From Candidatus Omnitrophota bacterium (lineage in GTDB: Bacteria; Omnitrophota; Gorgyraeia; Gygaellales; Profunditerraquicolaceae), in NCBI GenBank assembly GCA_030650425.1, contig JAUSED010000009.1:142846-206845 (forward strand): a stretch of DNA of 64,000 nt, in the 5' to 3' direction. A program made the translations under genes and the position numbers. Position 1 is the first letter of the stretch. Each line of letters starts with the position of its first letter. Below, piece after piece: positions 1-42,504 of this stretch. A model generated the notes under the pieces. It was given only the letters and a program-made list of their open reading frames with translations, was not told where the DNA came from and made no database searches.

Positions 1-3000
1 GGCCGATAGGAGGAGACTTTAACGGAGACGCAAAGACCGACGTCGGAATTTATAACAATACCACCGGAGAATTAAAAATCATTCTCTCCAATGGAGGCGA
101 TGCTAAAACCAGCCAAGGTTCATTTTCCGCTGGAAGTACCTGGTTTAATTTTTCCGGAGCGTCTTATTCCTGGCAGCCGTTTACCGGTAACTTTAATGGC
201 GACAAATACACTGACTTTGGCCTCTATAATGTCGATACCGGCGAAGTAAAAGCCGCCTTAGGCATCCCGCCACAAGGCGCGGGACAGGCAGGCAGCGGTT
301 TTGGGCCACTGACTACTTGGGCAAGCAGCGCAGGGGGCTATACCGCGCTCTCAGGAGATTTTAACGCGGATGGTTTAACTGATCTTTGTTTATTTAAGAA
401 ATCCAGCGGCGAATTCAAGGTAGCTTTTTCTAACTCCAAGTCTTTTGTTGATGAATCAACTTGGATTACCGGCTATGCTACGGATAAAGACGCGCTGGTT
501 TCTGACTTTAACAATGACGGCTTAACCGATATTGGTTATTGGGATAAGACAACAGGCAGGTGGTATTACGCCATCTCCACCGGTGATAAATTCGTCGATA
601 AAGGGGTTTGGCTAGATAGTTTTGGCTCAAGTAATGATGAATCCGCTACCACCGGTGATTTTAACGGTAACGGTATCACCGACGCTGCTACCTTTGATAA
701 AGACCAGCTCGGGATTGACCGTTGGACCACCCGCCTCTCTACCAATCAACCCGCGGATCTCCTCACTGAAATCGATAACGGCATCGGCGGCAAGACTAAA
801 ATTACCTACACTTATGCCGCAAGCGAAGACAATCTCGGCTTGCCATTCCCGGTTTATGTGGCTTCATCTATCAGTCTAATTAATACTTTTCCAACTGAGC
901 GCGCGGCTACCTACACCCAAAACTTTAGCTTCTCCGGCGGTTATTTCGATACCACTGAGCGCGAATTCCGCGGCTTTGCCAAAGTAAGGGTAACAGATCC
1001 AATTACCCATAACTACAGCGAAACCTACTTTTATCAGGGTAAGTCCGATGAAACCGATCCTTTCAAAAAGGATGGCGCGCTCAAAGGACAAATTGATAAG
1101 GTGATTGCTTATGATGGGAGTAACCGTAAAATCAGCGAAACAGTAAACACCTACGAAGTCAAAAAGGCCGGGCCTGAGGACAGGTTCTTAGGCTTTCCCA
1201 GCCTAAAAGAACAAAACACCACGGTCTACGAAGAAAACGGCAGCTCGCTTGCAACCAAAAACACCTTTAGCTATGACAATATCGGTAATCTCACCGGAGA
1301 AACAAGCTACGGCGATATTACCAAAACCGGAGATGAAAAATCAACCTCAAATACCTACGCCCAAGCCTATAGCTACAACACCACTGCTAGCTCCGGCTTT
1401 AACCGTCCGCTAGAATCCTCTCTCAAAGACAAAGATGGGAATATCGTCACCCAGAAAAACTTTGAGTATGACGCAAAAGGAAACCTCGCTAAAGATATTG
1501 TCTTGATCTCCAACCCGCTCACCAGTTCAGTCGTTACCACCCAAACCCAATACAGCTATGACGACTACGGCAACCTCACCTCAACCACCAATGCCTTAGG
1601 TAAGTCTGTTACCACCGAATACGAAACCGACCTTTACACCTATCCAGCCAAAGTCACTAACTCCCTAGCTCATTCCATAAGCTATATTTATGACCCGAAG
1701 TTTGGTGTGGTTAAGTCTGTCACCGATACTAATGGCGCTACCTCAAGCACAACCTATGATTCCTTTGCTAGGCCAGTACAAGTAAAGAATGCCTATGATC
1801 AAGTAGTGACAACCTATACCTACCCTGATTTTAACACTAAAACCACCACTAACGCCGTAGGCCTCTTTAAAACCGAGTATATTGACGGCTTAGGCAGAAA
1901 ATATAAAGCTATCTCCAGCGGTGAAGATGGCGCGTCTCAAAGGAATATCTCTAGCGAGGTTTTCTACAATGAAAGGGGATTAACCGCTAGCGAATCCCTG
2001 GCGCATTATGTTGATGAAGACGCCGGTAATATTTCCTATATCAGATATAGATATGACAAAAGAGGCAGGATAGCCGAGACTATCTCTGATTTCGCTACCC
2101 CAATGCAAGAGACAGGAGAACCTGGCGATTACAGCCAGCTTACTGGTAAAGATACCTTTAGCTCGATTTCTTACCTTACTCCTCTCTATGTGGAAACCAC
2201 TGACCCTCTAGGCCACCGCAAAGGCACGCTTAAGGATGTTTACGGTAATATCCTGGAAGTAAGAGAGTTTATCCATGCGGATAACGAAACCAAGCCTGAT
2301 GGCGCATTCCACACCTACTATGAATACGACACCCAGAATAACCTCACTAAAACCACGGATAACAAAGGTAACACTACCCAAATCTTCTATGACTCCATCG
2401 GCAGAAAGCTGAAGATGATTGACCCGGATATGGGTACCTGGAGCTATGAATATGATATACTAGGTAACCTAAAGAAGCAAACCGATGCCAAGGGCCAAAT
2501 CCTCACTTTTGAATACGACGATCTCAACCGCCTTGCAAAGAAATCGTCATTGCGAGGCAGCGAAGCTGCCGAAGCAATCTCTGAATATTTCTACGATGAC
2601 CCAGCTAAAGACAACTGCGTAGGAAGGCTATCTAAAATCACCGACCTCTCCGGCTCAACCGAATTCTTCTATGATAAGCTAGGCAGGGAAGTAAAAAGCA
2701 TTAAGTCATTGCGAGGCACCGAAGGTGCCGGAACAATCTCCTACACTGTCCAGCGCGAATACGATGTTTTAGACCGCCTGACTAAATTAACCTATCCCGA
2801 TGGCGAAGCAGTAAATTACACCTACGACACCAACTCCGGCTTACTTAAGTCATTGCGAGGCACCGCAGGTACCGAAGCAATCTCTTACGTCCAGAATATG
2901 TCCTACAACGCCAAAGGCCAATCCACCAATATCCTCTACGGCAACAATGTCCAGACTACTTACACCTATGGCCAAGACTTACGTCTTGCGAATATATCCA

Positions 3001-4787
3001 CTATCCACAGTCCATCATCTACCATCCTTCAAAACTTAGATTATACCTTCGACCACAACGGTAACCTGACTGATCTAAACGATGCCATAAGGAATAAAAA
3101 GCGTAACTATACTTACGATGACTTAGACCGTTTAATCAGCGCAAAAAATACTCCTGCGCCCGGAGGCCTATATGGAGATTTCTACTATAGCTATAACTCG
3201 ATAGGTAATATGTTTGAAAAAACTGAACCAAACAACTCTACCATAACTATGGGCTATGGCAAGGACGCAGGACCGCATGCTTTAACTAGCGTAGGAAATT
3301 GTAACTACCAATACGATGCCAATGGTAATATGACTGTCGGTAAAAACAAAATTCTTAGCTACGACACTGAGAACCGATTACTGAGCGTAAATGAACAAGG
3401 TATAATCACTTCATTCCTTTATGATGGAGATGGAGGGAGGGTAAGAAAGACCACCGGCTCAAATTCTACCACCTACATCGGCTCGCTCTTTGAAAAGGAT
3501 TCCAGCGGTAAAATCACTAAACATATCTTCGCCGGCTCAAACCGGGTAGCCTCTGCTATAGCGAACCCTGATGGAACTAAACAAACTCTATATTACCACA
3601 GCGATCACTTAGGTTCATCTAACGTGATTACCGATCAAACCGGCTCACTTGTGCAATATTGCGAATACACTCCTTATGGTTCGCTTGCCCGTAACGAAGG
3701 CACTGATGTAGCAACCCATAAATTCACCGGTAAGGAACTGGATAGGACTGGACTCTACTTCTACGGGGCGAGGTATTACGACCCGGAGATCGGCAGATTT
3801 ATTACTGCCGATACGATTGTCCAAGCTCCTTACAACCCCCAAACCTTAAACCGCTACACTTATTGTGGTAATAATCCGATTAATTATGTGGACCCAACGG
3901 GGCATTGGTTCTGGGCGTTAGTTTGGGTAATAATAGAGGCGGTAAAGGCGTATGCCATAGCACATCCTATCATCGCTGGAGCCATTGCAGGTGCAATTTT
4001 TAATACTGCTATGAATGCCTCTAATATCAATAGCTTCGGCAGTTTTATGACTTATGCAGCTATAGGCGCAGTAGCGGGCGCGGCTGGTGGAGGTGTTGGA
4101 GCATATATAGGAGCTAGTAGCGCGTTCTGGGGAACGGCCGCAGGCGCTTTTACAGGGGGATTTATTGCTGGGGCTGGAAACGCAGGTTATGGGGGAGCAA
4201 GCTTTGGCCAAGCTATGCTCTCTGGATTAATGGCTGGCGGTATTGCCGCAGCTACAGCAGTGGTAGTTTATGGAGCAATAAAGGTAGGCGAAAAGATAAT
4301 TTCATCAACGCAAAAGGTAGCCACTGCCCAAGCAAAAGCCGTGGGAGAAAAAACACCAGTAGGACAAAAAGATAGCGGTTTAACTACAGAAGTAGGAAAA
4401 GGCACATCTGGTGATCCCATAATTGATGACCCTGGAGTAAAAAAGACGATGGACAGAGCATGGCAAGAATCACTAGATGGTCAAGCAAACGTACATGAAC
4501 AAGGCGGATGGATAGAAGAACATGGTGGATATCGTTGGCCGCAAGGAGAAAGTGGCAGCATTTCGGTTCCAAACACTCGACCATCTGGAACTATAGCGGA
4601 ATTTCACACACACCCCTATTCATCTAGCGAAAGGTTTTTTCCTGGACCGAGTCCGAGTGATTTTTCAGGATTCAATGATCCATCATCAAGCGTATATGGC
4701 ATAAGACATTTTATTGTAGACAGGCAGGGAGTTATCGAATATCATGCTGATGGAAATTGGAATTATATAAAATCTTCTTCAGATTAA
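1..4787 (+). CDS. Rhs/YD-repeat polymorphic toxin, 5'-partial (continues upstream of window): FG-GAP-like repeats, YD repeats, RHS core, ~294-aa C-terminal toxin tip
   Basis: Frame 3 is open from nt 3 with no stop before the ORF-track TTG at 840. Five DFNGDGxTD FG-GAP-like repeats in 1..700; many YDxxGN YD repeats; RHS core RYYDPEIGRF...YVDPTGH at ~3760..3903; variable C-terminal tip follows. Confidence 0.9.
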   Translation, partial: PIGGDFNGDAKTDVGIYNNTTGELKIILSNGGDAKTSQGSFSAGSTWFNFSGASYSWQPFTGNFNGDKYTDFGLYNVDTGEVKAALGIPPQGAGQAGSGFGPLTTWASSAGGYTALSGDFNADGLTDLCLFKKSSGEFKVAFSNSKSFVDESTWITGYATDKDALVSDFNNDGLTDIGYWDKTTGRWYYAISTGDKFVDKGVWLDSFGSSNDESATTGDFNGNGITDAATFDKDQLGIDRWTTRLSTNQPADLLTEIDNGIGGKTKITYTYAASEDNLGLPFPVYVASSISLINTFPTERAATYTQNFSFSGGYFDTTEREFRGFAKVRVTDPITHNYSETYFYQGKSDETDPFKKDGALKGQIDKVIAYDGSNRKISETVNTYEVKKAGPEDRFLGFPSLKEQNTTVYEENGSSLATKNTFSYDNIGNLTGETSYGDITKTGDEKSTSNTYAQAYSYNTTASSGFNRPLESSLKDKDGNIVTQKNFEYDAKGNLAKDIVLISNPLTSSVVTTQTQYSYDDYGNLTSTTNALGKSVTTEYETDLYTYPAKVTNSLAHSISYIYDPKFGVVKSVTDTNGATSSTTYDSFARPVQVKNAYDQVVTTYTYPDFNTKTTTNAVGLFKTEYIDGLGRKYKAISSGEDGASQRNISSEVFYNERGLTASESLAHYVDEDAGNISYIRYRYDKRGRIAETISDFATPMQETGEPGDYSQLTGKDTFSSISYLTPLYVETTDPLGHRKGTLKDVYGNILEVREFIHADNETKPDGAFHTYYEYDTQNNLTKTTDNKGNTTQIFYDSIGRKLKMIDPDMGTWSYEYDILGNLKKQTDAKGQILTFEYDDLNRLAKKSSLRGSEAAEAISEYFYDDPAKDNCVGRLSKITDLSGSTEFFYDKLGREVKSIKSLRGTEGAGTISYTVQREYDVLDRLTKLTYPDGEAVNYTYDTNSGLLKSLRGTAGTEAISYVQNMSYNAKGQSTNILYGNNVQTTYTYGQDLRLANISTIHSPSSTILQNLDYTFDHNGNLTDLNDAIRNKKRNYTYDDLDRLISAKNTPAPGGLYGDFYYSYNSIGNMFEKTEPNNSTITMGYGKDAGPHALTSVGNCNYQYDANGNMTVGKNKILSYDTENRLLSVNEQGIITSFLYDGDGGRVRKTTGSNSTTYIGSLFEKDSSGKITKHIFAGSNRVASAIANPDGTKQTLYYHSDHLGSSNVITDQTGSLVQYCEYTPYGSLARNEGTDVATHKFTGKELDRTGLYFYGARYYDPEIGRFITADTIVQAPYNPQTLNRYTYCGNNPINYVDPTGHWFWALVWVIIEAVKAYAIAHPIIAGAIAGAIFNTAMNASNINSFGSFMTYAAIGAVAGAAGGGVGAYIGASSAFWGTAAGAFTGGFIAGAGNAGYGGASFGQAMLSGLMAGGIAAATAVVVYGAIKVGEKIISSTQKVATAQAKAVGEKTPVGQKDSGLTTEVGKGTSGDPIIDDPGVKKTMDRAWQESLDGQANVHEQGGWIEEHGGYRWPQGESGSISVPNTRPSGTIAEFHTHPYSSSERFFPGPSPSDFSGFNDPSSSVYGIRHFIVDRQGVIEYHADGNWNYIKSSSD
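2546..2579. repeat. GTCATTGCGAGG...GAAGCAATC palindromic element, copy 1, in frame inside rhs (encodes SLRGSEAAEAIS)
   Basis: gtcattgcgaggcagcgaagctgccgaagcaatc; internal hairpin ggcagc-gaa-gctgcc. Confidence 0.8.
2705..2738. repeat. Same element, copy 2, in frame inside rhs (encodes SLRGTEGAGTIS)
   Basis: gtcattgcgaggcaccgaaggtgccggaacaatc; hairpin ggcacc-gaa-ggtgcc, compensatory relative to copy 1. Confidence 0.8.
2849..2882. repeat. Same element, copy 3, in frame inside rhs (encodes SLRGTAGTEAIS)
   Basis: gtcattgcgaggcaccgcaggtaccgaagcaatc. Confidence 0.8.
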
Positions 4788-4791
4788 TAAA

Positions 4792-5202
4792 ATGCGTAAA
4801 TTATCAAATAACAGTTTTTTAACTATTAAAGTCTCTATAAAGATCTTACTAATTGTATCCTTATTGACTGGGATGTCTTATGTTAACAAGAAGGAAAATA
4901 TGAAAATTAAATATGAAGACGCGATAAAGATCTCAAATAATTTTCTTCAAAGTAAAGGTTTTGATACGCAAAAAACCGAGACTATTCTTGATCCAAAGAA
5001 TGAAAAGTGGGTTAAGTATTACTCAAACAACAAACTCCTTATTGAATACTATAGTGAACTATTGAAAACGTTAGAAGACAAGAATTACTGGGCAATCCAT
5101 TATGTGCCTAAAAAAATGACTTCTATAATTAAGGGAGGTGGAGCCTGGGTTTTTATTGATGTAACTACTGGAAAAGTGATTTCGTATTTTCTTGAAAAAT
5201 AG
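4792..5202 (+). CDS. Small AT-rich protein with N-terminal hydrophobic segment; candidate cognate immunity protein for the Rhs tip
   Basis: Starts 5 nt after rhs stop, same strand, strong AT shift; N-terminal TM/signal-like segment LLIVSLLTGMSYV; position typical of Rhs immunity genes. Confidence 0.5.
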   Translation: MRKLSNNSFLTIKVSIKILLIVSLLTGMSYVNKKENMKIKYEDAIKISNNFLQSKGFDTQKTETILDPKNEKWVKYYSNNKLLIEYYSELLKTLEDKNYWAIHYVPKKMTSIIKGGGAWVFIDVTTGKVISYFLEK

Positions 5203-5304: not shown

Positions 5305-6567
5305 TTAATTTTCAAGGCGTTGGATAAGCCTTTGGGATTTGATTCTTAAGGTTTCAGCGATAGCTTTGTTCTTTGATAAGAGGCAGGTGGAATCAATGAT
5401 GATAAGAGCCGCAATGGCCTCTTTGCATTGGCCGAGGGAAGCGGGTGAGTCTTGGAGTATCTTGGAGAGACAAGCGTTCTGTTTGATCCAGTAAGTCAAT
5501 GACCAGACTAAGAAGGAAATAATCCAATGACGTTGGATCTGTTCTTGGTCGTGGACTTGATACTGGTCAAAACAGAAGTTGTCTTTAAGTTCGCGGAATG
5601 ATTCTTCAATACCCCAGCGCAGAAGATAAGTATCAATAGCGGTTTTAACGGACATCGCGGGGTTATTGGTAATCAGGACATGCGTATCTTTTTCATCGGT
5701 ATCAGACCATTTGTCAAATATAAAGAAGATTTGTAAAGGGGTAGAACAATCCTTGAGTTTGGATTTGATGGCATAAGTAAATATGTGCTTAACTTTGCCG
5801 TTTTGTTGAAGGATTTCAACATGTTTGAGGCGGTGGGCATAGAATTGTTTGATTAGCGGAATAATTTCCTCAGCGCGCATATGCGCTTGTTGTTTAGTTT
5901 TAGGATGAGCAAAAAAGATAGAACGGTTAATTTTTGTTTCAGCGACGAAAACTAAATTTTTTGAGGCGATGAACTCAATCATCTCAGAGGAAGTGTACCA
6001 AGCATCAAAGACGATACTAGAGAAGGGGATATTTTTAGCGACAGCTTCGCTAATCAGCTCTTTAGCCAGATCAGGTTTACTTTTAAAATTCTCCGGCGGC
6101 TGGCCTTGTACAGGGATATAAGATTTAAAGTTGATCGGGAAGTGTTTAGTGTTGGAGACAAAACAGGAAGCGACGGCGACATTGCAATTTTCCTTTTTGC
6201 CCAAAGAGCCGCAGTATTGGAATTGAGCGCCTTCGGTTTTCTTGGCGTGAGGTTTAGGGCAGCCGGTATCATCAAGGGCGAAGACACCATTGGGCGTGGC
6301 GCGCGTTGTTGATTGATTCTGGATGATTTTAAGGCGCGTGTCATTGAGCTTATTGATATCCCAGGAAGAGTCAGAGAAGAAGTATTGGAGTTTTTGATAA
6401 TGAGTATTTGTTCTTCGGGCGATGGCGGATAATGATAAACGTTTGTAGTCGAAGAACATGCCATAGATAAGTCCGCGTAAGGCGGACATTTGGGTATTTG
6501 AAAAAACAGGCTGGAAGCGCGCAAGAAACTGATCGATAAAACGTAAACGAGCGTTGAAATGAGCCAT
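5305..6567 (-). CDS. DDE transposase, IS4/IS701-like
   Basis: 420 aa with transposase-like architecture; DDTG motif in the catalytic region; antisense shadow ORFs inside it. Confidence 0.7.
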   Translation of the reverse strand: MAHFNARLRFIDQFLARFQPVFSNTQMSALRGLIYGMFFDYKRLSLSAIARRTNTHYQKLQYFFSDSSWDINKLNDTRLKIIQNQSTTRATPNGVFALDDTGCPKPHAKKTEGAQFQYCGSLGKKENCNVAVASCFVSNTKHFPINFKSYIPVQGQPPENFKSKPDLAKELISEAVAKNIPFSSIVFDAWYTSSEMIEFIASKNLVFVAETKINRSIFFAHPKTKQQAHMRAEEIIPLIKQFYAHRLKHVEILQQNGKVKHIFTYAIKSKLKDCSTPLQIFFIFDKWSDTDEKDTHVLITNNPAMSVKTAIDTYLLRWGIEESFRELKDNFCFDQYQVHDQEQIQRHWIISFLVWSLTYWIKQNACLSKILQDSPASLGQCKEAIAALIIIDSTCLLSKNKAIAETLRIKSQRLIQRLEN

Positions 6568-6684: not shown

Positions 6685-8287
6685 TAGTTACCGCTGAAAA
6701 ACCCCGTTTATGATTACGCGGGTTAGAAGACAAGATTCTACACTCTGTTTTTATTGTTTGTTTTATTTATTTTTTGTTTTTTCATCCCGTTCATTGAAAA
6801 TCCTTGCCTTTAGCCGTATGCCGTAGCAGTTTTAAGGTTCATTGCCATAAGCCCTAAACGTATCCACATCTCTTCACCATCGGGAATATGGTAACGAATA
6901 CGGTCAAGGCCGTATTTGCGCTTAGCCAGGCTTATCTTTGCTTCAATAGAGCACCTTAAGCGGCGTAGGCGCTCCCTAAAAGGCTTGTGCTCTAGATAAG
7001 AGGATTTACCTTTATTCTCAATGGCAATTTTAGAGATATTTTTCTCTTCGGCCAAGAGGTAATTCTTTTTTGACCAGAATCCTCTGTCGGCAGATAACTG
7101 GCTGGGGTATGATCCAAAGCGTTCTTTGTAAGCGTCAATAGCGGTTCCTAATAAGTTTGAGTCTGAGATATTGGCGAAATTTAAGCTTTCTAAAAAGAGG
7201 CACTTGTTTTTAAGGTTAAGCAGGATTTTTGGCCCAAACTCAACCTCAACCGGGTATTTGCCCCTGACCATAGGCCGGAGATGCGGCTTATGCACAGAGA
7301 CGATGCGTTCCTTTACCGGCAGGCCATGATAAACATCTTTTTGCTGGGTAAGGATTGTACTGGCGGTATCTAGAAAACGTTGCGCCTCTTTGATAAATTC
7401 ATCCTTGGCTTTATCGGCAGTATTCTGATTGGGAGCGGAGATGTTATCCGTTGCTTCCTTAAGCTGGTTTATGTTCCTGCGGGAGAATTGCAGGAGTTTT
7501 CTCTGCGCTCTCCCGCGTGATTGCTTGGTATGATGCCTGATCTTTTGATAGGTGATAAATACTCTTCGAGCTGTGCGTTTGTAGGTGCGGTATGCCTTGG
7601 CGCCGAATTGTTTGGCAGTCTCCAGGTATTTTACCGCTTTCCGGCGCACCTTATCCAGCAGTGACACATCTGTAGGATAGGCGATATCAGCAGGCACAAC
7701 CGTAGTGTCGCAGACTAACCGCCTGCCTTTTAGGAGCCTTGTTCTTTGTAAACTTTTGAAGACTTCCTGTTCAATAAGCTTTACTCCTTCAACGCCGATC
7801 TGCTTCCTGAACTTGCTTAAGGTTGAAGGGTTGATAAAATTCTTAGCCTCTTTAAGAGAGACATCGCAGAGGTATTGAGCATAGATATCACGCTTGATAA
7901 GATCAACCAGTCCGGCATCTGAGTAACGGTATAAGTGCTTTAAGATTAACAGCCCGACCTTGGCACGGGATGGCTTGGCTGGACGGCCGTTATCAGCGCA
8001 ATAGAAACGGGAGAGCTTCTCTGATACCGACACCCAGTCTATTGCCTTGGATATCTTGATAAGCTCGTGGTTTTCATCAACTTCTGGAACGACGAACCAG
8101 TCGTGGGTGAAGCTAAACTGATGCTCTTCTGATTCTTTGGTATACATTTTTTAGGCCTCCTCATTTGTGGTTAAATGCACGATTCTCGACGATATTATAC
8201 CAAATTCCGTGCACTTTGAGGAGAATTATTACAACTATTTTTAACCACTCTCGTCGATAAACATCGAGGGTTTTTCAGCGGTAACTA
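6685..8287 (-). mobile_element. IS1182/IS5-family insertion sequence with 20-bp terminal inverted repeats
   Basis: tagttaccgctgaaaaaccc at 6685..6704 and its exact reverse complement at 8268..8287 flank the transposase ORF. Confidence 0.85.
6810..8147 (-). CDS. IS1182/IS5-family transposase (InsH-type N-terminal domain plus DDE)
   Basis: 445 aa; N-terminus FTHDWFVVPEVDENHELIKISKAIDW...YSDAGLVDLIK matches the InsH/DUF772 N-terminal domain. Confidence 0.8.
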   Translation of the reverse strand: MYTKESEEHQFSFTHDWFVVPEVDENHELIKISKAIDWVSVSEKLSRFYCADNGRPAKPSRAKVGLLILKHLYRYSDAGLVDLIKRDIYAQYLCDVSLKEAKNFINPSTLSKFRKQIGVEGVKLIEQEVFKSLQRTRLLKGRRLVCDTTVVPADIAYPTDVSLLDKVRRKAVKYLETAKQFGAKAYRTYKRTARRVFITYQKIRHHTKQSRGRAQRKLLQFSRRNINQLKEATDNISAPNQNTADKAKDEFIKEAQRFLDTASTILTQQKDVYHGLPVKERIVSVHKPHLRPMVRGKYPVEVEFGPKILLNLKNKCLFLESLNFANISDSNLLGTAIDAYKERFGSYPSQLSADRGFWSKKNYLLAEEKNISKIAIENKGKSSYLEHKPFRERLRRLRCSIEAKISLAKRKYGLDRIRYHIPDGEEMWIRLGLMAMNLKTATAYG

Positions 8288-8574: not shown

Positions 8575-8621
8575 TTTAAATGTGGCGACATTTGTTGCCA
8601 CATAATAAAAAGGGGGTTATC

Positions 8622-8930
8622 ATGAGCGCAGTAATTGATTTAATAAAAGCAGAGCATGTAGGAGTAAGGGAATTAAGAGACCACTTGTGTGGATTTATGA
8701 AAAACAAAAAACCTGCCATAGTGGTAACCGAAAGAGGGGAACCTATAAGGGTAATTATGTCTTACGCAAAGATGGTTGAATTACTAGAATTCTTTGATGA
8801 AGTTTCAGATCCGGATACTATGAGGAATATCCATGAAGGCGTAGAGGCAATTAAACAAGGTTCTAAAGGCGTTTCTTTTTCGGGAACCTATAAAAAATAT
8901 CATTCAGCGGTCCAAGCGGTAAAAAAATGA
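8622..8930 (+). CDS. Phd/YefM-family antitoxin (module 1)
   Basis: AGGGGG RBS then ATG at 8622; N-terminus ...VRELRDHL...KPAIVVTERGEPIRVIMS typical of Phd/YefM; 4-nt overlap with downstream toxin. Confidence 0.75.
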   Translation: MSAVIDLIKAEHVGVRELRDHLCGFMKNKKPAIVVTERGEPIRVIMSYAKMVELLEFFDEVSDPDTMRNIHEGVEAIKQGSKGVSFSGTYKKYHSAVQAVKK

Positions 8931-9238
8931 GCTACGATATTAGATATCCAACACCAAGGCTGAAAAAGTATTTTGACGAATTTTTGCAAAAAAAGATCCC
9001 GCATAAAAATCAGAGGGAAAAAATAGTAGATGAAGTAGATGGCCTCAGAGACAACCCCAGGCCATTCCATAAAAAAGGGTTTACGGAAATCAAACCGCCG
9101 ATGGCTGTTTCTTATCATTTGGCAGAATACAGATTAAGAATTGGGGATTATCGGATTTTGTATAATGTGGACGATAAGCAGAAGATCGTCTGGATATTAG
9201 ATATAAGGATACGCACGGAGAAAACTTATAGAGGATAG
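8927..9238 (+). CDS. RelE/ParE-family toxin (module 1)
   Basis: C-terminus YRLRIGDYRILYNVDDKQKIVWILDIRIRTEKTY matches the RelE/ParE signature. Confidence 0.8.
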   Translation: MSYDIRYPTPRLKKYFDEFLQKKIPHKNQREKIVDEVDGLRDNPRPFHKKGFTEIKPPMAVSYHLAEYRLRIGDYRILYNVDDKQKIVWILDIRIRTEKTYRG

Positions 9239-9987: not shown

Positions 9988-11022
9988 ATGAGAAAAATAT
10001 TCAAGCTATTTACCTTAATAATATTATTAGCTATGTTCGTTTTGCCTTCTGTTTATGCCGAAGTTCCGCACCTTATCAATTACCAAGGCCGGCTGACTGA
10101 TGCAAACGGAGTATCTTTAAATAACGCCTACAAAATTACTTTTAGGATATACGACGCTGAGAATGCCGGAACATTGCTCTGGCAAGGAACCTACAATAAC
10201 GTCTCAATCACCAAGGGCATCTTTAGCATCTTATTAGGTGATACCAATGACACCGGCTATAACTTCCAAATCCTTGCCTTTGATAAACCCTACTGGCTAG
10301 AGATTAAAGTCGGGGAAGATGCGCCGATGAAGCCGAGGCAGAGAATAACCAGTGTTGGATACGCGATAAAAGCGGAGAAGGCAGACTTTTTAACTACGCC
10401 GGCAGATCAAGGCGATATTCTTTATTATAATGGTTCTGCTTGGACAAAATTACCCGCAGGATCTCCAGGGCAATTTTTACAAACTCAAGGTGTTGGAAGT
10501 AGTCCTCAATGGGTTGCGCCTGCTTTTTCGAATATGCAAGTATTTACCTCCTCTGGAACTTGGATTAAACCAGCAGGAATAACTAAAGTATTGGTAAAAG
10601 TAATTGGTGGTGGAGGTGGTTCGAGTGGTAATTACAGTGGTCAGTATTCAGCATCAGGCGGTGGATCAGGTGGATATGCAGAGAAAATTTGCACAGTTAC
10701 CGGAAATGTTACGGTTACCGTAGGCGTAGGGGGAACTGGAAGCACCAATGCATCAATCATCCCTGGCGGAAACGGTGGAGATAGTTCTTTTGGAACTTTC
10801 TGTACTGCTGGTGGTGGTCAAGGTGGACAGATGACAGCTGCCCCTGGAACAGGTGGAACTGCAACTGAGGGAGATTTAAATGCAACCGGTTTTACTGGCA
10901 ATAAAGGAACCGGCAAAATGGACATACCTAATACCCAGAGTATGTTAGGTATCTCTTATGGATATGGTGGTGGCCCTAATGGAACTAATGGCGGTGCGGG
11001 TTTAGTTGTAGTTTATTGGTAA
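9988..11022 (+). CDS. Secreted glycine-rich protein (phage-tail-fibre-like Gly-rich C-terminal region)
   Basis: Signal peptide MRKIFKLFTLIILLAMFVLPSVYA; C-terminal half dominated by GGGGG/GxG runs; GGAG RBS. Confidence 0.55.
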   Translation: MRKIFKLFTLIILLAMFVLPSVYAEVPHLINYQGRLTDANGVSLNNAYKITFRIYDAENAGTLLWQGTYNNVSITKGIFSILLGDTNDTGYNFQILAFDKPYWLEIKVGEDAPMKPRQRITSVGYAIKAEKADFLTTPADQGDILYYNGSAWTKLPAGSPGQFLQTQGVGSSPQWVAPAFSNMQVFTSSGTWIKPAGITKVLVKVIGGGGGSSGNYSGQYSASGGGSGGYAEKICTVTGNVTVTVGVGGTGSTNASIIPGGNGGDSSFGTFCTAGGGQGGQMTAAPGTGGTATEGDLNATGFTGNKGTGKMDIPNTQSMLGISYGYGGGPNGTNGGAGLVVVYW

Positions 11023-11201
11023 TACGTTCAGAGAGACAGCCGAGAAAAAAATTAAAATTAAAAAATTAAAAAACACTTGACAAATAACGGGTTATATGTT
11101 AAAAAATAAAAAGTGCTGATGAATATCATCTAGGCAAATAAATTCTTTAGCCTAGTTTCAATATAAAAAACAAGGTATCATAAAAAAGGAGGAGAAAGAA
11201 A

Positions 11202-12500
11202 ATGAGTAAACGCTTAATTGTGGTATTAGCGCTTGTTTTTGTAGTCGGCTTAACCTTCGCCGCCTACGCTGAAGTGCAAAATGTGAAGGTGTCCGGAGAC
11301 TTGAATTTCTTGGCCATTGGCCGGGATAATTTCGATCTCGGAGTCGGAACACCAAACCTTAACAAAGGAAGGCTTTTTGGTACTCAGGCCCGTATCAGGA
11401 TTGACGCTGATCTGACTGATAATGTTATGACTACGATCAGGTTGATTAACGAAAGGAACTGGGGAAATAATACAACCGCTAACACTAACGCTAAAATTGA
11501 TCTGGATTTAGCCTATGTAACCCTGAAAGAATTCCTTTATTCTCCTTTGAGCGTTACAGTTGGCCGCCAAGAGATGAGATTCGGTAATGCTTTGATTATC
11601 GGTAACGGCAACCTTTTAACTAACGGTGCAGCCGATCTTTTTGGTTTCCCGAGAGACCTATCCTTACGGAAAGCGTTTGACGGCATCAAAGCAGTATTAA
11701 ACTACGATCCTTTGGTTGTTGATCTCATTTACGCAAAGGTCAGCAACGTTAATACCAACACTTCAGATTCCGACAATCTATTTGGTGTCAATGTTTCGTA
11801 TGATGTGAATAAGAAATTAAACGTTAATCCTTATGTGTTCGTCAAAGAAGATAAATCAGCAGTAGGAAATGCAGCTGGTATCGATAAAAAGAGAAACTCG
11901 GTTGTCACAACCGGTGCCCTCATCAGCGGTTCACCGATTGAAAATTTAAATACATCCTTAGAAGGCGCAGTACAATTTGGTAACAATAGGAACACTGCTG
12001 TTGCGAAAAAGCATGGCGGGTTCGCCTTACAAGGCTTGGCAGATTATACTTTCGCTAAAGTAAAATATACTCCGATGTTAGGGGCAGGTTACACTTATCT
12101 CTCCGGTAACAATAAAAAGGCTGGATGGGATGCAATGTTCACTGATCAGAGGCTAAACAGCATTACCTATGCGATATTGCCTTTTACTAACATGCAAGTA
12201 GTTAATATTAAAGGTAGCGCAAAGCCAATTGATGACGTGACTCTTATGGCGAATTACGGTTTCTATCGCTTAAACAAAGCAGTCACTACCATTACCAATG
12301 CTTATACCTCAACTGCTATGAACATGAATACTAGTAAAAAAGACTTAGGCAGTGCCCTTGATTTAACTGCACTGTATGACTATACCGAAGATGTACAAAT
12401 AGGTCTTACCTATGGTGTATTTTGGAAAGGTACTGCTTTCGTCGGGAGTAAAGGCGACTCAGCTACTCAGTTAATCGGTTCAATGAAAGTTACATTCTAA
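11202..12500 (+). CDS. Outer-membrane beta-barrel (porin-like) protein
   Basis: Signal peptide ...LTFAAYA; alternating beta-strand pattern; C-terminal ...SMKVTF with terminal Phe; AAGGAGG RBS. Confidence 0.6.
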   Translation: MSKRLIVVLALVFVVGLTFAAYAEVQNVKVSGDLNFLAIGRDNFDLGVGTPNLNKGRLFGTQARIRIDADLTDNVMTTIRLINERNWGNNTTANTNAKIDLDLAYVTLKEFLYSPLSVTVGRQEMRFGNALIIGNGNLLTNGAADLFGFPRDLSLRKAFDGIKAVLNYDPLVVDLIYAKVSNVNTNTSDSDNLFGVNVSYDVNKKLNVNPYVFVKEDKSAVGNAAGIDKKRNSVVTTGALISGSPIENLNTSLEGAVQFGNNRNTAVAKKHGGFALQGLADYTFAKVKYTPMLGAGYTYLSGNNKKAGWDAMFTDQRLNSITYAILPFTNMQVVNIKGSAKPIDDVTLMANYGFYRLNKAVTTITNAYTSTAMNMNTSKKDLGSALDLTALYDYTEDVQIGLTYGVFWKGTAFVGSKGDSATQLIGSMKVTF

Positions 12501-12522
12501 GTCAGTTTATGTAAAGCAATAC

Positions 12523-12558
12523 CTACCCTCGGGAGAGAAATCTCCCGAGGGTTTTTTA
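12523..12558 (+). terminator. Rho-independent terminator
   Basis: ccctcgggagagaaatctcccgagggtttttt: 10-bp GC stem plus T-tract right after the OMP stop. Confidence 0.8.
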
Positions 12559-12565
12559 ATATAGA

Positions 12566-12614
12566 GTCATCCCCGTGAAAACGGGAAACTGATCCCCGCT
12601 TTCGCGGGGATGAC
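12566..12614. repeat. GTCATCCCCG...CGGGGATGAC double-hairpin palindromic element
   Basis: gtcatccccgtgaaaacgggaaactgatccccgctttcgcggggatgac: 10-bp outer inverted repeat plus two inner hairpins. Confidence 0.75.
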
Positions 12615-12626
12615 AATACGAATAAT

Positions 12627-14186
12627 ATGTTATATCTCGCCTTTATCTTCCATATGCACCAGCCGTATTATAAAGATCTGCTCACGCGCCAGACAGATCT
12701 GCCTTGGGTTAGGCTGCATGGGGTCAAAGACTATCTGGATATGGTGCAAATCCTTGAGAAATTCCCCAAGATTCATCAAACCTTTAACATTGTTCCGTCA
12801 TTACTGGAACAGGTCGAAGATTACACTGCCAGAGAGGTTAAGGATAAATTCCTCGAGCTTTCCTATAAACGAGCCGAAGATTTAGCCCCTAATGATAAAG
12901 ATTTTATCCTCAGTAATTTCTTTTCAATCAATAAAGAAAAGGTCATCGCGTTTTTCCCGCGTTATTATGAATTGTATTTCAAGAAGCAAAAGAAACAGGA
13001 ATTCAACACTCAAGATTTCTTAGACCTGCAGGTCTGGTTCAATTTAGCCTGGATTGACCCGTGTTTCCGCCAAAGATTTCCGGAATTAAAAAATCTTGTT
13101 TCCAAAGGAAGATTTTTTAGCGAAGAGGAGAAACAAATAGTTCTAGATAAGCAACTGGCTATCTTGGAAGAAATTATTCCTAATTACAAAAAGTTTTGCG
13201 GCTCCGAACAAATAGAATTAAGCGTTAGCCCGTATTATCACCCGATATTGCCGCTGCTTTACAGCACTAATGCCGCCAAAGAAGCTAATCATCAAAGCCT
13301 TTTGCCAAAGTCGGAATTCCGATATCCCGATGACGCAAAAGCTCAAATCGAATCTTCGGTTAAGTTTTACCGGGAGAGATTTAGAATAGCCCCAAAAGGG
13401 ATGTGGCCTTCCGAAGAATCAGTCTGCGAAAATATCCTGCCGCTTATGATCAACGCCGGAATAAAATGGATTGTCACCGACGAGGCCATACTCTTTAAGT
13501 CCTTAAAAAAGAAAAAACGGGAAACGGCGCTGCTTTATCAGCCGCATTTATTAAAGAGAGATAACGGGGAATTAAAAATAATCTTCCGTGACCGCAATCT
13601 TTCGGACTTACTCGGCTTTGTTTACCATACTTGGAAAACGGAAAACGCGGTAGCGGATTTCATAGAGCACCTGAATAATATAAACAAGGCATTTAAGGGT
13701 GAGGATACTCTAGTCACAATAGCTATGGACGGAGAGAATGCCTGGGAATATTATACTAATGATGGCCATGATTTCTTAGAGCTGCTTTACCAGCGTTTAT
13801 CCGAATCCGATTTTATCAAGGTAACCAGAGTATCCGAATATTTGGAAAAACATCCGGTTAAATCTAAAATCCGGCATTTAAGCGCGGGTTCATGGATCTA
13901 CGGAAATTTTAATAAATGGATGGGGAATCCTTATAAGGTAAAAGCCTGGGAATGGCTGCTTGAGGCAAGAAAAAAACTCGAGAAAATTAACGCGGATGGA
14001 ACAAATACAAAAACCGCATTGGCTTGGAAACAAATATATATCTTAGAAGGAAGTGATTGGTTCTGGTGGTACGGTGAAGACCCGGATGGCTCTTTTGATA
14101 AGCTCTTTCGCCTGCACTTAAGAAACTTCTATACGATCATCGAAGAACCCATTCCGAAATATTTAGAGAACCCTCTAAGTACTTGA
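12627..14186 (+). CDS. Glycoside hydrolase family 57 enzyme (alpha-glucan branching enzyme or amylase-like)
   Basis: N-terminal FIFHMHQPYY (GH57 HQP motif); MDGENAWEYY catalytic-region motif; 519 aa, in the size range of GH57 branching enzymes. Confidence 0.75.
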   Translation: MLYLAFIFHMHQPYYKDLLTRQTDLPWVRLHGVKDYLDMVQILEKFPKIHQTFNIVPSLLEQVEDYTAREVKDKFLELSYKRAEDLAPNDKDFILSNFFSINKEKVIAFFPRYYELYFKKQKKQEFNTQDFLDLQVWFNLAWIDPCFRQRFPELKNLVSKGRFFSEEEKQIVLDKQLAILEEIIPNYKKFCGSEQIELSVSPYYHPILPLLYSTNAAKEANHQSLLPKSEFRYPDDAKAQIESSVKFYRERFRIAPKGMWPSEESVCENILPLMINAGIKWIVTDEAILFKSLKKKKRETALLYQPHLLKRDNGELKIIFRDRNLSDLLGFVYHTWKTENAVADFIEHLNNINKAFKGEDTLVTIAMDGENAWEYYTNDGHDFLELLYQRLSESDFIKVTRVSEYLEKHPVKSKIRHLSAGSWIYGNFNKWMGNPYKVKAWEWLLEARKKLEKINADGTNTKTALAWKQIYILEGSDWFWWYGEDPDGSFDKLFRLHLRNFYTIIEEPIPKYLENPLST

Positions 14187-42433: not shown

Positions 42434-42504
42434 AGCGGGTGAGCGGAATCGAACCGCCATATCCAGCTTGGGAAGCTGGTGTTCTACCACTGAACTACAC
42501 CCGC
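42434..42504 (-). tRNA. tRNA-Gly (anticodon CCC)
   Basis: Minus-strand sequence gcgggtgtagttcagtggtagaacaccagcttcccaagctggatatggcggttcgattccgctcacccgct folds as a cloverleaf with 7/7 acceptor stem and T-loop GGTTCGATTCC. Confidence 0.85.

Follow-up and report, generated by a model that had tools for sequence, protein, structure and literature searches.

The window analysed here, a 64,000-nucleotide stretch of Candidatus Omnitrophota contig JAUSED010000009.1 (positions 142,846 to 206,845), contains a gene for a Rhs/YD-shell protein whose variable C-terminal tip and adjacent small gene form a divergent new member of the known, biochemically uncharacterised toxin–immunity pair Tox-JAB-2/Imm-NTF2-2. 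The locus is of an ordinary type and not a new kind of system. Reading frame 3 is uninterrupted from nucleotide 3 to a stop codon at 4785–4787 and is already open at the window edge, so the Rhs gene extends past the 5′ boundary (Table 1). The encoded protein matches the Pfam model RHS_repeat (3.9e-36) and also YD_repeat_2x, and the Rhs-associated core model TIGR03696 aligns along its full length (model positions 1–76 of 76, E = 2.5e-23) with residues 1222–1301, stopping exactly at H1301 of the DPTGH motif (nucleotide 3905). YD/RHS repeats and a core ending in DPxG[LH] directly before a variable tip identify a Rhs/YD-shell protein, and the start at 3904 given in the initial annotation, which was made by a model reader from the sequence alone, falls within 2 nucleotides of the boundary between core and tip. 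By analogy with what is established for Rhs/TcC proteins, cleavage after DPTGH is predicted to free the C-terminal tip within the shell.

The tip comprises a hydrophobic segment of about 132 residues, a polar linker and a C-terminal domain of 125 residues, lengths that replace the approximately 110 and 135 residues first estimated for its two parts. The C-terminal domain carries the motif E30...H66-T-H68-P...S81-P-S-D84 (nucleotides 4497, 4605–4616 and 4650–4661), in which 11 residues, rather than the 12 originally counted, separate HTHP from SPSD, corresponding to 12 residues between HxH and SxxD. Neither Pfam nor NCBIfam yielded a match to the tip sequence of the window, and a phmmer search of the domain against the PDB returned noise. 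A word-indexed protein search recovered a single homologue, P0001, with 61% identity, and a hidden Markov model search seeded with the two sequences then expanded the family to 334 relatives at E ≤ 1e-3, including 33 at E ≤ 1e-10. An alignment of 45 relatives leaves S21, E30, G32, H66, T67, H68 and D84 unchanged throughout and shows conservation of 90% or more at A17, F65, P69, P80 and S81; in the 20 relatives that served for modelling, the invariant positions are E30, G32, P58, H66, T67, H68, P69, P80, S81 and D84. The four metal-site residues of the JAMM/JAB metallopeptidase-like motif proposed at the outset (E30, H66, H68 and D84) are therefore invariant in both sets. The domain lies at the C terminus, with no more than 30 residues beyond it, in 128 of 151 matched sequences, and the regions upstream include Rhs cores, PAAR domains, extracellular contractile injection system (eCIS)-core domains (DUF4157) and others. 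Placement behind Rhs, PAAR and eCIS-core carriers is the pattern of a polymorphic-toxin tip. One relative, in Mycobacterium sp. OTB74 (L043, JARXVD010000002.1, 1715–5354), adjoins phage-sheath and gp19-like tube genes, a neighbourhood that suggests an extracellular contractile injection system.

Structure prediction places these residues as in an MPN fold. An AlphaFold2 model built from 20 sequences is confident (predicted local distance difference test score (pLDDT) 88, predicted template modelling score 0.83) and replaces a run on two sequences that reached a pLDDT of 44 and was unusable. In the model, H66 and H68 close strand 63–67 and S81 and D84 open helix 82–86, so that a strand ends in HxH and the next helix begins with SxxD, within an alpha+beta fold of the JAB/deaminase-like type. 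This agrees with the JAB/MPN type of fold put forward in the initial annotation, and no unrelated known domain matched the C-terminal tip in Pfam, NCBIfam or the PDB. Profile matches in the PDB are weak (E = 0.2–0.5), and all seven of seven are JAMM proteins with HxH and SxxD aligned; Foldseek matches against the PDB are likewise weak (E > 0.04), yet JAB- or deaminase-like. The best fold matches are active isopeptidases, with fold-comparison values of 8.9 for zinc-bound Rpn11, 8.8 for Pyrococcus JAMM1, 8.8 for BRCC36, 8.4 for CSN5 and 8.2 for Cap3 of the cyclic-oligonucleotide-based antiphage signalling system (CBASS), followed by 7.3 for AfJAMM and 5.3 for RadC. The JAB interpretation of the domain is thus supported by fold, motif conservation and synteny. 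We also considered a deaminase toxin and rejected it: the fold kinship is distant, and the domain has no CxxC and thus lacks the [HC]xE...PCxxC zinc site.

Tox-JAB-2 was defined by Zhang et al. 2012 (PMC3482391) as DUF4329, a domain of deaminase-like alpha+beta fold with conserved E, H[ST]H, S and D that is borne by RHS proteins, exported through type II, type VI or type VII secretion systems (T2SS, T6SS, T7SS) or TcdB/TcaC, and accompanied by Imm-NTF2-2 as its immunity partner. The window domain has each of these residues and occupies the tip directly after the Rhs core, and its neighbouring gene is linked to Imm-NTF2-2 through homologue scores and through synteny in 14 loci, as described below. 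Of the best 150 relatives, 74 match DUF4329 (PF14220) and 30 match Prok-JAB at E ≤ 0.01, and the family-profile consensus scores 32.6 bits against DUF4329 (gathering cut-off 28.6) and 21.2 bits against Prok-JAB; the window domain itself has no match to PF14220 even at E ≤ 1. A fold search among viral proteins returned iridovirus and other nucleocytoplasmic large DNA virus (NCLDV) proteins and Xanthomonas phage Xop411 p25, in agreement with the relatives that Zhang et al. list in iridoviruses, other NCLDVs and Xanthomonas phage OP1. A tblastn search of plasmids and phages with the family consensus found no match. In the Salmonella literature, PAAR-Rhs-DUF4329 candidates are reported in more than 150 serotypes, and DUF4329 has also been described in E. 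coli O157 and Xanthomonas. The tip, which the initial annotation did not recognise as a named toxin family, is accordingly Tox-JAB-2/DUF4329 with Imm-NTF2-2 as partner. The window member resembles published Tox-JAB-2 proteins in forming the C-terminal tip of an RHS/TcdB-TcaC-type protein, in its E/H[ST]H/S/D residues, in its fold and in its adjacent Imm-NTF2-2 gene, and it differs in coming from Omnitrophota, a phylum absent from the published list. In its branch the domain often stands behind a Gly/Ala-rich segment, and most of the partner immunity proteins are exported.

Two further groups of JAB-clade proteins help to place this domain. It shares all motif residues with the JAMM/MPN+ isopeptidases (Rpn11, CSN5, BRCC36, AfJAMM, PfJAMM1, CBASS Cap3 and BilC), but 12 residues, in place of 7, separate its HxH from its SxxD, and it is the tip of a secreted toxin with no evident ubiquitin-like partner, whereas those enzymes are intracellular; Zhang et al. 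2012 (PMC3482391) note that the residues of the tunnel for the ubiquitin-like tail are not conserved in toxin JAB domains. Tox-JAB-1 is also a JAB-clade Rhs toxin, and its partner Imm65 is a lipoprotein and hence exported, but Tox-JAB-1 has the motif NxxxE, HxH, S, D and is confined to Bacteroidetes, and no Toxin-JAB1 or Imm65 match was seen with Pfam.

The downstream open reading frame (ORF) of 136 residues noted in the initial annotation exists as described, begins 4 nucleotides after the toxin stop codon and is, on the evidence of gene order and profile comparison, the predicted cognate immunity gene, travelling with the toxin domain in other genomes. It is 100% identical to an annotated NCBI protein that starts at M37. 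The closest toxin lies in a groundwater metagenome contig (L001) with the same layout of Rhs core end, hydrophobic segment, toxin domain and 136-residue ORF, and the two downstream ORFs are 45% identical. A single in-frame TAA within the hydrophobic pre-toxin segment of L001 (417–419) leads the gene caller to divide the Rhs tip into two ORFs; the locus could be a pseudogene or an orphan cassette, or the stop codon an error of sequencing. Genome and metagenome scans with an alignment of six close sequences yielded 40 more loci. With a profile built from three immunity sequences, the gene next after the toxin is recognised as a homologue at 13 loci besides the window, or 14 with it, spanning at least seven phyla (the window, L001, L002, L006, L008–L011, L013, L017–L020 and L042); the taxa are Omnitrophota, Planctomycetales, Bacteroidota, Chloroflexota, Gemmatimonas, Acidimicrobiales and a Hydrogenedentales metagenome-assembled genome (MAG). 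In particular, the closest tips (L001, L002 and L017–L020) all retain the homologous ORF directly downstream. The downstream ORFs of L003 and L043 (the latter of 95 residues) and the C terminus of the relative P0024 resemble the immunity family by eye and, being undetected by the profile, were not counted. P0024 (392 residues) apparently joins a JAB domain, a hydrophobic stretch and a C terminus resembling the mycobacterial downstream ORF in one polypeptide, and could be a toxin–immunity fusion or a gene-calling artefact. Loci L014–L016 and L041 were left out of the counts; these Gemmatimonadota MAGs encode weakly related HTHP proteins (score about 25) with an N-terminal anchor, followed by a conserved gene of about 295 residues in place of a small immunity ORF, and the proteins are probably not toxins.

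Assignment of the immunity family rests on the same kind of profile-level link. Against Imm-NTF2-2 (PF15631, cut-off 26 bits), the L017 homologue scores 26.9, L002 23.5, the profile consensus 19.5 and the window ORF 13.4 (E = 0.09). PepSY was weighed as another identity and set aside: its matches are equally weak (E = 0.0009–0.01) and never pass its own cut-off, whereas Imm-NTF2-2 passes in a homologue and is the published partner. Like Imm-NTF2-2, the family consists of small alpha+beta proteins encoded immediately after a Tox-JAB-2 toxin; it differs in that Zhang et al. list Imm-NTF2-2 as ‘E. coli only’, whereas here it occurs in several phyla, usually with a signal peptide or lipobox. A search of the immunity profile against the PDB gave noise, and a promoter and terminator scan around the gene was uninformative. 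Base composition follows the proposed cassette only in part. The fraction of G+C is 0.424 in the whole window, 0.455 in the rhs body, and 0.42 in the linker and C-terminal domain, and it falls to 0.30 in the immunity ORF; that ORF and the last ~140 nucleotides of the toxin gene are the only markedly AT-rich parts. The suggestion that tip and immunity gene are both AT-richer than the rhs body thus holds for the immunity ORF and fails for the Gly/Ala-rich segment, which is GC-richer (0.51).

Ala accounts for 26%, Gly for 19% and Ile for 11% of that segment, and just two of its first 125 residues are charged; it is most hydrophobic at tip residues 1–36 and 102–128. The long, uncharged, Gly/Ala-rich hydrophobic stretch is a solid feature, and the strict ‘glycine zipper’ described in the initial annotation is weaker: small-xxx-small spacings number 37 against 31.8 ± 2.9 in composition-matched shuffles (95 of 2000 reach 37), and triple zippers 22 against 15.2 ± 3.5 (76 of 2000 reach 22), so that zipper periodicity is marginally above the expectation from composition (p about 0.04–0.05). 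The segment has no Pfam match, and phmmer against all relatives and loci returned only the segment itself, with no homology to equivalent segments elsewhere. In 29 of 87 relatives a segment of similar composition stands before the toxin domain, and such segments are also found at loci L002–L004, L011, L013, L017 and L019. Its composition suggests that the window segment may insert into membranes, and it is conceivable that the segment is the real toxin, a membrane-depolarising pore former comparable to Tse5 or EsxX, with the JAB-like domain accessory or inactive. Such a role would suit 132 nearly uncharged residues rich in small-xxx-small spacing; there are precedents both for pore-forming tips encapsulated by Rhs shells and for depolarising toxins with glycine zippers, and export or anchoring would place the immunity protein at the membrane. 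We nevertheless regard this explanation as very unlikely, because the immunity family tracks the JAB domain and is present at six loci without the segment (L006, L008–L010, L018 and L042), 58 of 87 relatives have no segment, the zipper periodicity barely exceeds that of shuffled sequences and the segment has no detectable homology to its counterparts; moreover, the JAMM catalytic residues are conserved family-wide, which argues for an active enzyme. Tse5, a Rhs effector of P. aeruginosa whose encapsulated C-terminal domain forms pores, resembles the window protein in having a Rhs shell followed by a hydrophobic fragment, which here is predicted to insert into membranes. The likeness to Tse5 and to the glycine-zipper depolarising toxins (EsxX and ionophores of contact-dependent inhibition (CDI)) extends to immunity that acts, or here is predicted to act, at the membrane or within one particular compartment. 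The difference is that at this locus an enzyme domain follows the segment and the immunity family tracks the enzyme.

The immunity proteins carry signals that bear on where the toxin acts. The N-terminal 36 residues of the window immunity ORF resemble a signal peptide or membrane anchor, and signal peptides, lipoboxes (LGAC, LISC, FLGC and LGSC among them) or anchors mark 11 of the 14 homologues. Across all distinct loci, ORFs of unrelated families included, 20 of 28 downstream ORFs look exported, and the partner looks exported at all ten loci with a Gly/Ala-rich segment compared with 10 of 18 without one (Fisher p = 0.025). Codon 37 of the window ORF is an in-frame ATG (nucleotide 4900) that encodes the first residue of the globular domain and is preceded by the Shine–Dalgarno-like sequence AAGAAGGAAAAT. 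An internal ATG with GAGG, AAGG or GGAG 5–12 nucleotides upstream recurs at L001, L002, L003, L017, L019 and L020, and the internal Met column is kept in 8 of 13 aligned homologues. These Shine–Dalgarno-like runs lie in coding sequence, and the amino acids that they encode differ between loci. Dual initiation could therefore give a long exported and a short cytoplasmic immunity product; alternatively, the ATG could encode a structurally conserved Met within Lys/Glu/Gly-rich coding sequence.

Together, we consider it probable that this variable toxin–immunity cassette at the end of the Omnitrophota Rhs/YD-shell protein encodes a membrane-held envelope hydrolase. In this proposal, the shell would enclose the tip, the aspartyl autoprotease of the core would cut after DPTGH, and the released fragment of ~290 residues would insert its hydrophobic segment into the inner membrane of the target. 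Tethered to the membrane in this way, most probably facing the periplasm, the domain would act as a zinc-dependent JAMM-type hydrolase that splits an amide or isopeptide bond of an envelope component. The immunity protein would be exported or anchored in the membrane through its N-terminal hydrophobic segment and would block the enzyme by binding, and a second, cytoplasmic form may come from the conserved internal start. An enzyme at the periplasmic face is favoured because the partners are mostly exported and because a hydrophobic segment often precedes the domain, and further hints of an envelope role come from a relative that is a LysM–JAB fusion and from the lipoprotein Imm65 encoded beside Tox-JAB-1.

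The same immunity data also frame a nuclease alternative, in which the JAB-like domain acts in the cytoplasm as a RadC-like enzyme, the hydrophobic segment carries it across the inner membrane and the short form starting at M37 confers immunity. Zhang et al. 2012 (PMC3482391) guessed at nuclease activity for Tox-JAB-2, since toxin JAB domains without the ubiquitin-tail tunnel residues may be RadC-like nucleases, and Salmonella and E. coli papers have since carried that conjecture forward, without experiments, as an ‘RNase’ label on DUF4329. The conserved internal ATG with its Shine–Dalgarno-like sequence would yield a cytoplasmic immunity protein, the NCBI annotation gives the short form, and three homologues (L006, L008 and L010) have no export signal; such signal-less variants imply that neutralisation of the toxin can be needed in the cytoplasm as well. 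Exported partners, however, are unexpected if toxin and immunity protein meet solely in the cytoplasm, and export features mark 11 of the 14 homologues and every locus with the segment. The best fold matches, moreover, are active isopeptidases and not RadC, and the searchable literature yielded no experimental work, nuclease or other activity, or neutralisation test for any Tox-JAB-2 member. We therefore judge a cytoplasmic nuclease unlikely.

Besides the nuclease conjecture and the signal-less homologues, several points weigh against a membrane-held envelope hydrolase. That the tip binds zinc, acts as a hydrolase, is released by autoproteolysis and enters membranes is in each case a prediction. 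The HxH-to-SxxD spacer departs from the canonical 7 residues and varies among relatives, and the closest homologue, P0001, has an insertion between Ser and Asp. The window toxin and immunity sequences fall below every Pfam and NCBIfam threshold, and their family membership comes through profile-level links. The start that NCBI assigns lies past the hydrophobic segment of the immunity ORF, at a better ribosome-binding site, so export of the window immunity protein is not certain. Finally, the Rhs N terminus, and with it clues to the delivery route, lies beyond the 5′ window edge. A broader and more speculative proposal, to which we give a low probability, is that Tox-JAB-2 proteins in general would be envelope-directed amide or isopeptide hydrolases and not RNases, with peptidoglycan cross-links, lipoprotein–peptidoglycan links or lipid-linked precursors as examples of their targets; in this branch they would be held at the periplasmic face of the inner membrane by a Gly/Ala-rich anchor and countered in two compartments by the long exported or lipoprotein form and the short cytoplasmic form of one immunity gene.

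Downstream of the cassette lie two transposase genes, in keeping with the two insertion sequence (IS) elements first described as abutting the locus. The second lies in what looks like a complete insertion sequence, with inverted repeats at 6685–6704 and 8268–8287 (TAGTTACCGCTGAAAAACCC) that are perfect over 20 nucleotides; no convincing terminal repeats were found for the DDE_5 transposase gene (5305–6567). These mobile elements raise the question of whether the locus is a decaying remnant, an IS-flanked cassette of a gene perhaps broken upstream of the window. The interrupted tip of the closest homologue locus, L001, would fit decay, and a k-mer protein search did not return the window’s own Rhs protein, which may not be annotated. 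Inside the window, however, the frame is open across all 4785 nucleotides, the catalytic and family-invariant residues are all intact, and the immunity ORF is intact and identical to its annotated NCBI counterpart, leaving decay with very little credibility.

Table 1 Features of the Rhs toxin–immunity locus and adjoining mobile elements (window coordinates)
Feature	Position	Strand	Basis or note
Rhs/YD-shell body, 5′-truncated by the window	3–3905	+	Pfam/NCBIfam matches
FG-GAP repeats	~357–533	+	Pfam (FG-GAP_3)
TcdB_toxin_midN	~585–1019, then RHS/YD repeats	+	Pfam
Rhs-associated core domain	3666–3905	+	NCBIfam TIGR03696
DPTGH, final Rhs-core motif	3891–3905	+	End of TIGR03696 match
132-residue Gly/Ala/Ile-rich hydrophobic segment (‘glycine zipper’ region)	3906–4301 (residues 1302–1433)	+	Composition, hydropathy
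36-residue polar linker with abundant Lys, Thr, Gly, Gln and Ala	4302–4409	+	Translation; outside profile match and structure model
Tox-JAB-2 (DUF4329-like) JAMM-type toxin domain, 125 residues	4410–4784	+	
Predicted catalytic residues	E30 4497–4499; H66 4605–4607; H68 4611–4613; S81 4650–4652; D84 4659–4661	+	
Immunity gene, 136-residue ORF, divergent Imm-NTF2-2	4792–5202	+	Synteny, profile links
Transposase gene (DDE_5/DDE_Tnp_1)	5305–6567	-	Pfam 7e-33; directly downstream of cassette
Insertion sequence	6685–8287	-	Perfect 20-nucleotide terminal inverted repeats
Transposase (DUF772 + DDE_Tnp_1) inside the insertion sequence	6810–8147	-	Pfam

Beyond the insertion sequence, two small overlapping ORFs at 8580–9238 (116 and 103 residues), the second matching ParE_toxin (1.1e-08), are probably a type II toxin–antitoxin pair. 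Genes at 9988–14186 encode a Gly_rich_2 domain protein, an alginate-export-type outer-membrane protein and a GH57 glycoside hydrolase, and the sole tRNA of the window is a tRNA-Gly(CCC) at 42434–42504.

Tox-JAB-2/DUF4329 is widespread, yet its ‘RNase’ label rests on a conjecture from 2012, and the value of this locus is in its hints on where the family acts. The 334 relatives, of which about half of the best 150 have no DUF4329 match, show that the Pfam models miss a sizeable share of the family, and the range of the toxin–immunity pair now includes Omnitrophota and several other phyla. This divergent branch offers two handles at the level of sequence, an immunity protein that is mostly exported or a lipoprotein and a frequent membrane-seeking segment before the enzyme, and each suggests an action on the cell envelope and not on nucleic acids.

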